Source: Blastocystis sp. Blastoise
Taxonomy: Eukaryota > Protista > Bigyra: Opalinata
Length of the DNA stretch: 64,000 bases
Direction: 5' to 3'
Assembly: GCA_039096225.1 (NCBI GenBank)
Contig: JBBPEB010000011.1
Span: forward strand, 868,001 to 932,000
In this document: positions 1-61,800 of the stretch, piece by piece
Numbering within the stretch: the stretch's first letter is position 1
Layout of the letters: each line of letters opens with the position of its first letter
The notes under the pieces: generated by a model
Seen by the model: only the letters and a program-made list of their open reading frames with translations
The model's database searches: none
What the model was told of the DNA's origin: nothing
Translations under genes and position numbers: made by a program

Positions 1-3000
1 ATTATTATTATATTTGTTATCATTATTATCATAATTATTATTATAGAATTGTAATATAATATTTAAAATACTAATAAAAACAATAATATAGAATAAATAA
101 TAATATCATTATTATACTAAATAAAATAATTAATAATAATAAAATATATATACCAAATAGTATCAAAAGCAAATGTTTGTTGAATAATATTATCGGGTGA
201 AAGATGTTTCATACATATATCAGTATTACCTTCAATTTCTTTATATTGTTTTTCAGGAGGTTCTATCATCCCTTGATCTAATAATTCTTTAACAAAACGT
301 GTTCCTTGTTGAATTACATTCATTGATTTCTTTAATATAGTATTTAAATTTCTATCTCCATTTCGATCAAAATGTTTCGATGTTTTATAAGTAAGAATAT
401 TATGTGTTATATATATAAATTTATGTATGTTTTTAATATTATTAACTATAGATATAGTACCATTGATCATATAATAAGGAAATGAAAATAAACATATTAT
501 TGAAAATTGCATTGAAGAATATGCTATTTCATATGCAGAAGAAGAAGAAGAAGAAGAAGAAGAAGAATTAGAATTAGAATTAGAAGAATTAGAAGAAGAA
601 ATACCAAGAATATCGGTAGTAGATGAAGGTAATGAACAAAATATAGAAGAAGAAGTATCATTATTAGTAAATAGAGGAGTCACATTAGTATATTGAGTAG
701 ACATACAATTATATAACCATTTTGATGGAAATAAATACAAACTTGGTTCTTTTCCTTCTATATATATAGATATATAGACATATTAATTATATAAGTATAT
801 ATAAGTTTATTATATATATATACGATTCAAACAATCAGTAATATTAAATATATCAAGAATTGGATATATAAAAGAAAATAATTCAGTTTGGTTCATATTA
901 GGATTTATAAAGAGAAGAAATGGATCAATAATCGTGGTTATTTCCTTTTTTGTACTGATAAATGTTGTTTCTTTCTTTTGGAAATGAAAGAAACAAGGAT
1001 AATAAGTAGTATATAGAGCATCAGGTATATATCTAAATTCAGGATAACCATACTATATAATAATAATAATAAACATATATATATATACTTGTTCCATATT
1101 ATAAGCAGCTATATAACAATCAGAATATGTTTTATTCTGAATATTAGTTTCAGCATCATCTAAATATGTCTGAATTAATTCTGAAGAATTAATAATATCA
1201 TACTATATAAAAATATATTTTTATATAATATTTATATATTAATTATATATAATATATACTATACTTATTAAATAAATAAATAAAAAGCATATATATATAT
1301 ACTAAATAAATAGATTTCTGAATAATTGTCACTTTAACAAGAATAATATATCTTTTATCTACATGAATAACGGCGGATAATCGTGATAATAAGACATTAA
1401 AAGTAGACGATATATCAATATATATAGGAATGGGATTAGCTACTAAGGAATAACTATATCCATTAGAATTCTTAAAAAAAAACTGACTCATTACATTCAC
1501 GGGAATTACTACATTTTCAGTAGCAAATGAGCAAATTAACATGGTTGACATCTCACTGGTTATTGACTGGATATAATAATAAATAGAATAATAATGAGAA
1601 TATATATATATATACAGAATGATTACAGTGTGTACATTTCTTTTCTATAACAGTATTCATAGAAAAAAGATCAATAATCCCACGGGAATCAGGTATATCT
1701 GAAGGAGAATGAGGTATTTCTTCAAATAATGTTAATAAATTACACTATAATTATAGTATAGAATATAATATTATATAGATACAAGGAATTCACTAGAATC
1801 ATTTTGAGAATGATATCGAAACCGCGGGAATCGATGACAAAAAACAGAAGAAAACGGTTGTAGTATAGTTTTAGAATCATATTCTATATATAGGAAATGA
1901 TGTATATATGAAATATTAATAATAATAATAATATTATTATTATATATATACTGTCATTAAAATGGATATGATAGAAATAAAATGCAATAAGAAGAAGGGC
2001 ATTGGTATAATTAGAATTCTATATATAAGAATATATATATATATATATATAAGTATATGTATATATATATATACATCATTAAAAAAGTCTCTATATTTCA
2101 TTAATCTATCAATAAAGGAAGGGATATGATATAAACACTATATATATATAAGTATATGTGTATATATATATAGAATACTTGAAGTACAGAATTTCGATAG
2201 CACGTGTTTCCTTCATTAAATAGACCACGTCTACCAGATAGCTATATATATATATATATATATATATATATATATATATATATATATATATATATATATA
2301 TATTTACTTGAAATTTATTCTCATAATTTGGATCTATAAAAATAATAATAAATATATATATATATATATATATATACATTGCTGAATAGTATCTGAAAGT
2401 GGTTGATTGTTAACATCATATAATATATCTGACATATATAAACCATTATTATTATTATTATTATTATATATATTAGGTGTAGAAGTAGAATTAGAAGAAT
2501 TAGAAGAAGAAGATGTTTTTGAATGTCCATAATCATAAGATAATGGATTAATTGGTTCGTTTTGATTTATAATATTATAAGAAGAAGATGAAGATGAAGA
2601 GAAAGGTGTGGAATTTGAGGTATCTGTAGAAGAAGAAGGATATATATAATTAGATTGAGTAGAGTCTGTAGAAAGTGAAGGATTAAAGAAATGATATAAA
2701 TTATTTTGAGTTTCTGTTGAAGTAGTAGAAGAACTTGAAATAAAGGAAATTGAATTATTAGTATTATTATTATTATTAGTATTTGAGATATTATTATTAT
2801 TAGTATCTGAGACATTATTATTATTATTATCTGAGACATTATTATTATTATTATTATTATTAGTATTATTAGTATCTGAGATATTATTATTATTATTATT
2901 ATTTACAGTAGTATACATATCATGAATAGGATTTAATAAAGAAGAGGGAATAGATAAAGGATTTGAAGTAATAGAATAATCATGATTATTATTACTATTA

Positions 3001-58863: not shown

Positions 58864-61800
58864 TTACTCAATAAGTGGAATCATTTCTGTGTTTTTATTG
58901 AGAGTAAGAGAGGGATTATAGGCGGCATCATAGGCGGTATTATAGGAGGGATTGAGTGATGTGGAAACTCTCTTTCGATAATAGTATTTCCTTCTCTTTT
59001 TAAGAATATAATATAAAGATATAGATATAAATAGACTAATGATTAAAGAAAGGATAATACCCGATATTATGAATATATAATAAGATAATGTATTTAAATG
59101 TATTTCTTTGGCCTTATCAAACAGAATTGAAATAGTACTAATAGATCGAATATCTTTATTATAATTATTTTTAATATTTGAATATAATTCAGTTGAAATA
59201 CTATTATTATATATTAAATAGTTTTCAAGAAAAGTAGAATCAAAAGAAGAACTTAATATATATACATATAAATATGAAGAATTTGTTATAGTCTTATTCG
59301 ATAAAACTTGAATACTATTATTAGTTATATATTTATTATTATTAGTAATATTAATATTATTATTAGTTATATTAATATTATTATACTTATTATTAATTAT
59401 ATCCATATAATTAATAAGAAAAGAAAGATTTTCTATTGTTTTTATTTGTCCCTGTGTATTAGAGAATACATATAAATTGGATATTATTATTCCTAAAGAA
59501 GAAAGAGAAGTATAAAATGTATTCCAAATAACTCCTTGAAGAATAGGAGACTCTAAGGACAATGTACTAGGTACATCAGTTAACTATATATATAGATATA
59601 TATATAGTGTTAAACAAAAATATACTTAATAAATATATATATTAATATAAATAAAAACATTAAGATCAATAAAATATATATATATATATATATATATAAA
59701 CAAAAATAATAAAAATTGATAAAGTATTTTACTTTAAACATGAAATATTATTTATTGAATATATATAAAAATAATAATAAATATATATATATACTTTTAT
59801 GGGTATAATCACTTTATAAGAATTAAATATCCATTGATGAAGAAGATCTTGAATTGTGTTTTGACTATAGCACGTGCGTTTTTCAATGTCTCCCCATGAA
59901 ACACTATTATTTCCATTAGATATACATTGTCTGAATTGAAATCCATTCGAATTATTGTCACATGGCAAATAGAACACAGTTAACTCAGAACTAAATAGCC
60001 ATTGTCCATCTGTAGCACAAAATAGTATTTCACATTCTAAACGGAATTCAACCGACATTTTTCCTGCAGCATTGGATACTGTCATTATATACATATAATC
60101 TAATGCTTCTTCTGGGATTCCCGTGATTATTCCGGTGATATTATTCATAGTTAATCCTTTTGGTAATAGTTTAGAGAGTGTGATATTATAAGTATCTCCT
60201 GATTGTATTATAGGTACAATAGGAGTTATAATATGTTGATAATATATATGGAAATGAGTAGAAGAAAGAGTAAGGACAGGAGGGAGTAATGTACAAGTAT
60301 CATTAATAGGTTCCCAATAAGGATTAATAAGAATATTACAATATCGACTACGACTACCACTATAATACTTCTTTATACAAGGTAATGTAATGGAATGATA
60401 TATATATGTAGAAGGCCAATCAGAGTCTTCTGTACATAAAGGAGTTTCTATATGAATAATAAAAGAAGTAGGTATTACTGTAGATTCTGTTTTAATAGCA
60501 ACACTTATAAAAAACTGTCCAGGTGTATTAATAGTCCCAGAAATAGATCCAGTTGTTTTATCAAAAGAAAGACTTGAAGGAATAATAGGAGCTTCAAGAG
60601 ATTCAATACCACGACCATATATAGAAGGATTAATAACAGCTATAGGAAAAGATGCATATCCATAAGCAGCAGAAGGATAGATAATAGAGGGAAGTATTTG
60701 TGTACAATTTGTAGAGAGAATTCGTATTTGATAACTATTATTACTTATTTCTTGACATTGAATACTAATTGTACCTTCAAGATCAAAAGGTAATCCACAA
60801 GAAATAGTAGCATAATATCCTACAGGAAGAGCAGGAAAAGTATCTGAAGCAGGACAATTAACATGTTCATAACTATTAATAGAAAACATAGCATAATTCT
60901 TCCCACGTGAATTATATCCAATAACAGTATACACTTGAGAATATTGTTCTGTAATAACTCCTGTAATAACTCCTGTTGAATTATCAAAGACAAGTGTTGA
61001 AGGAAGAGAAGGAGAAATTGAATAAAAAGCTATTACAGAGTTATTTATGATAGGAATAATTGTAAGAGAAGTATAAAGAGATATAGATGAAACTGAAGTA
61101 TATGTAAATGAAGGTAAAGTTAATGAGCAATCAATAATAGGATATTCCCATTGTCCTTCTTCATTCACATATGAACACTTTCTACTAATACTACCTGTAA
61201 AATAATTTGGACATTGAAGAACTTGTGTATTTCCAATAGTATCATTCCATTCACCTTGAGTAGGACAATATATAGCTTCTACAATAAAATGAAGAGATAA
61301 TATCACAGCTGAAGCACTATTTGCATAAGAAAATAAATTATAGGAACTAGATACAGTAGTAGGAGTACCACTAATAATACCTGTATCATTATTAATACTT
61401 AATCCTTCTGGTAATATACTTAAAGAAGAGAAACGACAGAAGCACCCAACAGCTGTAGGTATTAATGGTTCCATAGGAACATTTATATATAGATATACTG
61501 TTGTCATTGGGTAATAAAATGAACTTGGAGGAGAAACAGAACATTTATTAAATTCTACTCCATATTCTCCTGTAGGTAAACATTGTCTATATTTATAATT
61601 ATAATAACAACCTGTACAAGGAACATAATTAAATTCATTATATAAAGAAATACCATAATCTCCTAAGGTATGACAAATATTATTAGGATATTGACTACTT
61701 ACTATATTCCATTCAGATATACGTATAGTATTTGCATAACATAAATCAGTAGAAGTAGCATCTGAACATGATATTATAGAAAGTTGATAAGCAATATAAG

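Follow-up and report, generated by a model that had tools for sequence, protein, structure and literature searches.

Introns with alternating TA ends in a 64-kilobase stretch of low-GC Blastocystis DNA

The window analyzed here is the whole 64-kilobase (64-kb) stretch from 868,001 to 932,000 of contig JBBPEB010000011.1 of Blastocystis sp. Blastoise, and every intron count refers to it. Its 13 gene models are interrupted by introns most of which begin with an alternating TA run (a TA cap) and many of which end with one. With about 22% GC the window is low-GC Blastocystis DNA and is taken to belong to the tortoise-type lineage, which has 21-23% GC, about 12% low-complexity DNA and longer, variable introns (PMC12129017). 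P0001, a protein that NCBI names Blastocystis sp. Blastoise, is 100% identical to an exon of the window over 102 amino acids; it differs from the window at several residues, which makes it a close relative or an allele. A phospholipase B exon matches P0002, a second protein of that name. Protein searches with two further exons gave no match, and a metagenome scan with P0001 found no relative and hence no orthologous low-GC intron for comparison.

758..59794, both strands: 124 curated U2-type (major) introns in 13 gene models, 33-619 nucleotides (nt) long with a median of 96, consensus GTAT(A)T(AT)n ... (AT)n(A)TATAG

Introns were called with a gene model in which the intron state was plain base composition and the signals were GT and AG only, with no term for TA. 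The curated set comprises 32 introns of tier A (5 joined by RNA contigs and 27 by junction peptides of relatives' proteins), 72 supported by the gene model only and 20 called manually; the manual calls may be biased to TA ends, and the proportions in tier A are similar. P0001 supplied junction peptides for 20 introns, of which 17 were identical to the first call, and P0002 for 9, of which 5 were; three annotated junctions (two of P0002, one of P0001) were discarded as annotation workarounds. Twenty-four first-pass calls were dropped or corrected, among them an ambiguous pair at 13488-13699 and an ambiguous call at 19288-19049. All 13 gene models are open frames, and completing them took 7 introns outside the curated set, which excludes two AT-AC introns and one apparent GT..AA intron. 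With GT/GC..AG ends and removal from mRNA documented by the RNA contigs and the relatives' proteins, the curated introns belong to the ordinary major class, though their consensus is unusual, and fall outside the bridged class known from zebrafish and lamprey.

RNA cover was examined over 5000-10322 only, where five of eight predicted introns were confirmed and three had little or no cover. At all five covered introns of the ubiquitin hydrolase gene the X1 and X2 RNA contigs skip exactly the predicted lengths, and the RNA runs X3 and X4 yielded nothing useful. The five introns, in which z denotes folding stability against shuffled sequence, are the following.

6608..6714, minus strand: ubiquitin hydrolase (UCH domain) intron with a 7-nt 5' TA run and no 3' cap (TTTTTAG end); an X1 contig skips 107 nt, CT..AC
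8550..8654, minus strand: intron with a 3' cap only (GTATGA... ATATATATATAG); X1 and X2 contigs skip 105 nt
9070..9195, minus strand: intron with a 9-nt 5' and a 6-nt 3' TA run; X1 and X2 contigs; z +1.65 versus shuffles
9428..9568, minus strand: intron with a 5' cap only; X1 and X2 contigs; z +2.56
9926..10121, minus strand: intron with a 7-nt 5' run and the end CTCTATAG; an X2 contig skips 196 nt

Intron starts are dominated by GTATAT (88/124), usually extended to GTATATAT (73/124), and intron ends by ATATAG (70/124), extended to ATATATAG in 48/124; both 8-mers occur together in 36/124, and 23/124 introns have neither hexamer. The corresponding figures among the 32 tier A introns are 23, 22, 19, 15, 11 and 6. 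A preliminary description of this DNA, according to which most introns begin with GTATATAT and end with ATATATAG, is thus correct for the 5' end but not for the 3' end, where only the shorter ATATAG reaches a majority. The outermost positions to which it tied the pattern match real intron ends of the minus strand (an acceptor at 2242 and a donor at 59794), and intron interiors are T-rich, as it stated (57% T, 36% A).

The same description had made its reading depend on (AT)n being denser at intron ends than in intron interiors or intergenic DNA, and this is the case. An alternating run of at least 7 nt follows GTA at 60% of 122 donors, versus 9% of 64 interior, 6% of 187 intergenic and 3% of 347 exonic occurrences, and a run of that length precedes TAG at 40% of 119 acceptors, versus 10% of 58 interior and 4% of 231 intergenic occurrences, so that splice-site-anchored TA runs are about 4-10 times commoner than those beside matching letters inside introns or between genes. 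In 300 within-intron dinucleotide shuffles the mean numbers of capped ends were 20 (5') and 16 (3') and the maxima 30 and 26, versus 74 and 48 observed. TA cover reaches 0.68 immediately inside the 5' end and 0.46 close to the 3' end, compared with 0.11 for intron interiors and 0.06 for intergenic DNA, and the caps are in phase with the splice sites and strand-specific (antisense controls, 9% and 16%). The probability that a run continues is about 0.7-0.8, flat and without a step, as in a microsatellite, and run length has no link with intron length or exon length. The extreme case is an intron that consists of one single tract.

51409..51454, minus strand: 46-nt intron, G(TA)22G; gene model only

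At the 5' site +4T (+4U in the RNA) is found in 114/124 introns, +6U in 113/124 and +5A in 96/124, and +5G in only 8/124. A pyrimidine run of at least 6 nt occurs in the last 30 nt of 28/124 introns, which is the background level (22.7% of 194 interior windows), in agreement with the earlier statement that a pyrimidine tract is usually missing. The companion statement, that there is usually no CTRAY, holds in that the motif is rare (10/124) but not in the sense of absence, given that 0/101 interior windows contain it; it shows weak enrichment upstream of the 3' site together with YTRAY (54/124 versus 22% of interior windows) and TACT (37/124 versus 7%). A second AG lies within the last 30 nt in only 10/124 introns, and there is no trade-off between a branch-like motif and the 3' run (p 0.79). 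We also observed that the density of CTATA in the final 45 nt of introns is about 4-6 times that of the remaining intron sequence; there the motif could close a local hairpin over the TATAG acceptor. Palindrome repair was rejected as its source, given that 5' ends show no matching enrichment of the mirror motif TATAC.

Within 700 nt of the gene start TA caps are seldom seen, a gradient that the preliminary description had overlooked. A 5' run of at least 7 nt is present in 1/13 introns within 300 nt of the gene start and in about 74% beyond 1500 nt, where gene starts are those of the gene models rather than mapped transcription starts. The far median is higher in 9/9 genes having both classes, and the gradient persists in the 111 non-first introns. 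It resides in the A positions: between near and far introns, +5A rises from 17/31 to 79/93, +7A from 12/31 to 83/93 and -6A from 12/31 to 70/93, and A at +9 shifts likewise, whereas +4T (26/31 versus 88/93), +6T (27/31 versus 86/93), -3T (31/31 versus 88/93) and -5T (28/31 versus 85/93) do not differ significantly. Over the same span the TA-run cover of intron interiors rises from 0.054 to 0.135 and the observed/expected ratio of TpA in exons from 0.76 to about 1.0. The first 700 nt or so of all genes have lower TpA and ApT and higher GC, in exons and introns alike. ApT methylation found no support as a cause of the gradient; in the extract of PMC12695648, which does not mention Blastocystis, such methylation has no clear effect on ApT content in most species. 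The within-gene gradient offers a new way to tell the effects of mutation and selection apart at splice sites.

For comparison, loci of three high-GC Blastocystis lineages were considered (L001, L002 and L003-L006, the last 95-98% identical). De novo intron calls on L001-L005 were too noisy, and many candidate "introns" were in-frame coding gaps; only two shared intron positions and one L001 intron were used. At the two positions shared with all three lineages the relatives' introns are 29-31 nt long, with six different hexamers at their starts, TAG at their ends and no TA run. These degenerate 5' sites, a very small sample, make it probable that the weak 5' consensus dates far back in the genus.

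Taken together, these results make it somewhat probable, in our judgment, that short GUAUAU and (A)UAUAG cores are selected separately at each end and that the longer tails come from replication slippage. The cores would be splice-site signals read by the ordinary major spliceosome, with no need for end-to-end pairing, and the (TA)n tails likely slippage by-products seeded by the cores. In keeping with an ordinary spliceosome, Table S5 of PMC12129017 gives domains of SF1/BBP (1, 1, 1), the U2AF small subunit (2, 3, 2) and Luc7 (1, 1, 1) for three tortoise isolates. In this scheme +4U and +6U would suit pairing with the U6 ACAGA box and UAU at +6 to +8 would suit U1. U6 is known to base-pair with the intron around +3 to +5 (PMC11732430). 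AT pressure may have replaced a weakly held +5G, and a mild preference for A at +5, -4 and -6 would complete a 6-nt seed prone to slippage. As branch sites, degenerate YTRAY- or TACT-type interruptions upstream of the 3' run are likely, with the first AG downstream of the branch site presumably being used. In a toy model of substitution and slippage, in which the fixed letters varied by run and no pairing term was included, fixing GTATAT and ATATAG independently gave, in 5/8 settings, 50-59% of introns with a 5' run of at least 7 nt and 69-75% with a 3' run of at least 6 nt, the best settings having an interior cover of 0.10-0.15; the values observed in the 93 distal introns are 70%, 65% and 0.11. 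Since the core-fixed model reproduces most tails and weaker constraints do not, the short cores appear to need selection, and the tails appear to be largely by-products.

Several results weigh against independent cores with slipped tails. The toy model underpredicts 5' tails of at least 11 nt (15-25% in the five best settings and at most 27% in any, versus 40% observed), fails in 3/8 settings, those with a higher slippage threshold, falls well short in all 20 symmetric-slippage runs and largely fails in another series (best, 52% and 23%); with the T positions alone fixed it gives at most 18% and 10%, and the A's must therefore be favored by something further. Anchored runs continue with higher probability than interior runs of equal length (0.70-0.83 versus 0.38-0.56), and within the 32 introns of tier A by themselves the gradient does not reach significance (p 0.25 and 0.07). 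An Rfam search gave no hit, and neither small nuclear RNAs nor U2AF2 were seen, in this 64-kb window as opposed to a genome. In yeasts, +4U preference accompanies loss of METTL16 (PMC10581693). For the three tortoise isolates, Table S5 of PMC12129017 gives METTL16 in 1/3, SNRNP27K in 2/3 and the U1-70K N-terminal signature in 0/3. As METTL16 is listed there in most human subtypes as well, its loss is not established. The U2AF large-subunit signature, under what we take to be its accession, appears in the extract of that table for no species and is hence uninformative.

A second explanation, which we regard as unlikely, holds that the whole (UA)n tract is functional, the splice signals of tortoise-type Blastocystis having been re-coded genome-wide to alternating UA. 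Each end would be recognized by a U1 with a changed 5' end, by a U6 with a changed ACAGA box, or by a lineage-specific (UA)n-binding protein that also replaces the contact of U2AF2 with the pyrimidine tract at AUAUAG; introns proximal to the mRNA cap would need the tract less. The near absence of +5G in favor of +5A, the lack of pyrimidine-tract enrichment and tails longer than a neutral model yields all argue for it, as does the fact that a GC donor and an apparent AA acceptor each adjoin TA runs.

41399..41605, plus strand: likely GC-AG intron with a long TA tail after the donor; the relative's annotation places a GT donor 78 nt upstream
56660..56753, plus strand: apparent GT..AA intron with the end TATATAA where TATATAG would be expected; once it is removed the phospholipase B frame is open again, and its position is one at which L001, too, has an intron

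The second of these is either a non-canonical acceptor or an assembly error. Plants are known to define U-rich introns by means of proteins (PMC2682935). The U1-70K N-terminal signature, at 0/0/0 in the tortoise isolates, is present in 4/5 human-subtype strains; however, the InterPro zeros also cover SmE and SmG and may thus reflect divergence. Against a changed U6, its ACAGA box is invariant in the surveyed yeasts despite +4 switches (PMC10581693). The introns with neither hexamer, and three RNA-confirmed introns capped at a single end, are difficult to reconcile with a tract that is read as such, and tract length follows regional TA-richness, exons included, along a gradient that reaches beyond first introns. 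Were such re-coding true, a self-regenerating microsatellite would be the splice code, tolerating even GC donors and an AA acceptor, and the genome should then encode a U1 whose 5' end can pair with GUAUAUAU, an altered ACAGA box, or no U2AF2.

We consider it less likely still that the 5' and 3' (AU)n tracts pair across the intron and join the splice sites as (AC)m-(GT)n repeats do in zebrafish, which was the structural one of the two mechanisms offered in the preliminary description, the other being an (AU)n-binding protein. Its element of end enrichment stands, and short UA-alternating cores seem to be favored, but an RNA clamp joining the two ends is not supported. Raw 5' and 3' run lengths do covary (rho 0.26, n = 122, p 0.003; within-gene permutation p 0.04), as do the longest runs in the end windows (rho 0.40, n = 97), and pairs across an exon correlate at only 0.06. 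Beyond 700 nt, however, the covariation falls to rho 0.09 (n = 91) and is lost once gene position is controlled for (partial r 0.12, not significant); the 5' end of one intron correlates equally well with the 3' end of the next (0.33), and the difference between same-intron and cross-exon correlations has a bootstrap P of 0.07.

In 51 two-intron folds, predicted pairing within an intron exceeds pairing across the exon (1.8 versus 0.75 base pairs [bp], p 0.0004), 23/41 double-capped introns folded alone have at least 4 predicted end-to-end bp, and 11/94 introns have z below -2 versus shuffles, the best case being the following.

40994..41104, plus strand: intron with 19-nt and 29-nt TA runs and a predicted end-to-end helix; P0001 junction; z -3.26

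Chimeric introns, however, pair equally (p 0.79 and 0.61; 6.84 versus 7.15 bp in the double-capped class), the two ends of one intron match each other no better than permuted ends do (complementarity of 7.87 versus 7.77 nt), and at least 4 end-to-end bp are predicted in only 31/94 introns with flanks and 36/94 without. Pairing of the skip type, between neighboring introns, equals same-intron pairing, (AU)n pairs as readily with itself, and wrong-register pairing sums to 4.4 bp versus 3.6 in the right register. Folding is no more stable than in dinucleotide shuffles (mean z -0.15; 48/94 above zero), and only 36/124 introns carry both 8-mers. A self-complementary repeat is moreover directionless, and the predicted helix would bury GU and AG themselves. 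These folds are equilibrium predictions on AU-rich RNA, and individual introns may yet be clamped. Among the properties of bridged introns, repeat enrichment adjoining both splice sites and an absent or weak pyrimidine tract are found here; co-occurrence across the same intron beyond independence and not across exons, and an end-to-end helix as the preferred, partner-specific fold, are not.

It is very improbable that the caps are purely mutational or a DNA-level feature, with only GT/AG or the T positions selected and the rest due to neutral microsatellite growth or chromatin, for although the low-complexity content of tortoise-type genomes (PMC12129017) and a gradient that touches all sequence classes would fit, models fixing GT..AG, GTA..TAG or T only give at most 18% capped 5' ends versus 70% observed, the caps are phased and strand-specific, and ApT methylation has no clear effect on ApT content in most species (PMC12695648).

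Two further introns of the window likely belong to the minor class.

57022..57107, plus strand: likely U12-type AT-AC intron in the phospholipase B gene, with internal TA tracts and none at the 3' end; P0002 bypasses the intron
20173..20244, minus strand: likely U12-type AT-AC intron without TA tracts; gene model

Both have an ATATCCT 5' site, a TTCT(T)TAAT-like branch box near the AC end and an open frame once removed, in keeping with what we take to be the U12-type consensus. The annotation of the relative appears to miss an AT-AC intron and the likely GC donor, which indicates that TA-capped introns can mislead gene finders. Minor introns are known in Blastocystis ST1 (PMC5608401, PMC10639083).

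Genes and other features of the window include the following.

23394..46415, plus strand: giant gene of about 5400 amino acids with 56 curated introns; weak PH hit; near-identical to P0001; presumably VPS13-like
32616-32830, plus strand: frame shift of the giant gene near a long (AAT)n run, probably an assembly indel; an intron call at 32616-32683 was dropped as a likely frameshift artifact
49762-53199, minus strand: gene with CCCH zinc fingers and a DCD-domain hit, which we take to be CPSF30/YTH-like; TA caps are longest in this gene (means of 14.8 and 12.0 nt)
54200-57656, plus strand: region in which P0002 joins a small lysine/histidine-rich gene to the phospholipase B gene, a likely annotation error
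58867-64000, minus strand: large, nearly intron-free gene with He_PIG Ig-like repeats, likely a surface protein

The word CACGGGAA occurs 7 times, versus 0.1-0.6 expected under Markov models (1498, 1681, 28581, 29535, 42954, 45870, 56256 and others). Likewise over-represented, mostly in coding DNA, are CGCGGGAA, the reverse complements and CACGTG (15 versus 1.2-4.3), and similar CCGCGGGAA words occur in the high-GC loci L001 and L004.

We found no description of TA-capped introns in Blastocystis in the literature covered, which did not extend to figures (e.g., the logos of PMC5608401 Fig. 1), subscription papers and preprint supplements. The window offers a natural test of splice-site recognition after the usual signals have decayed: the consensus of its major-class introns has +5A in place of +5G, lacks a pyrimidine tract and bears a TA run at either end, and the genome is intron-rich, with congeners whose introns are 30 nt long. 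The bridged introns of zebrafish and lamprey, 0.09-2.3% of introns, were defined by cross-intron co-occurrence and a stability a third above shuffles, and U2AF2 independence was shown for them (Lin et al. 2016, PMC4691745). The introns described here resemble them in having dinucleotide repeats near both splice sites and no pyrimidine tract; however, they use one self-complementary repeat, phased with GT and AG and present in a majority of introns, instead of two different directional repeats, and they show neither controlled covariation nor excess stability. With the +4U yeasts that lack METTL16 or SNRNP27K (PMC10581693) they share the dominance of +4U and +6U, but those yeasts are mostly intron-poor, whereas here the genome is intron-rich and +5G is nearly gone. 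As in the AU/U-rich intron definition by plant UBP1 (PMC2682935), short AU-rich, U-biased introns stand against GC-richer exons; the plant signal is one of bulk composition, in contrast to the alternating run phase-locked to each end here. Human-subtype Blastocystis (PMC5608401, PMC12129017) shares the phospholipase B intron positions, TAG acceptors and a weak 5' consensus, and the GC-AG and AT-AC intron classes are common to the genus, but its introns are 30 nt long, the orthologous ones without TA caps, whereas those of the window are 33-619 nt long, A+T-rich and TA-capped.

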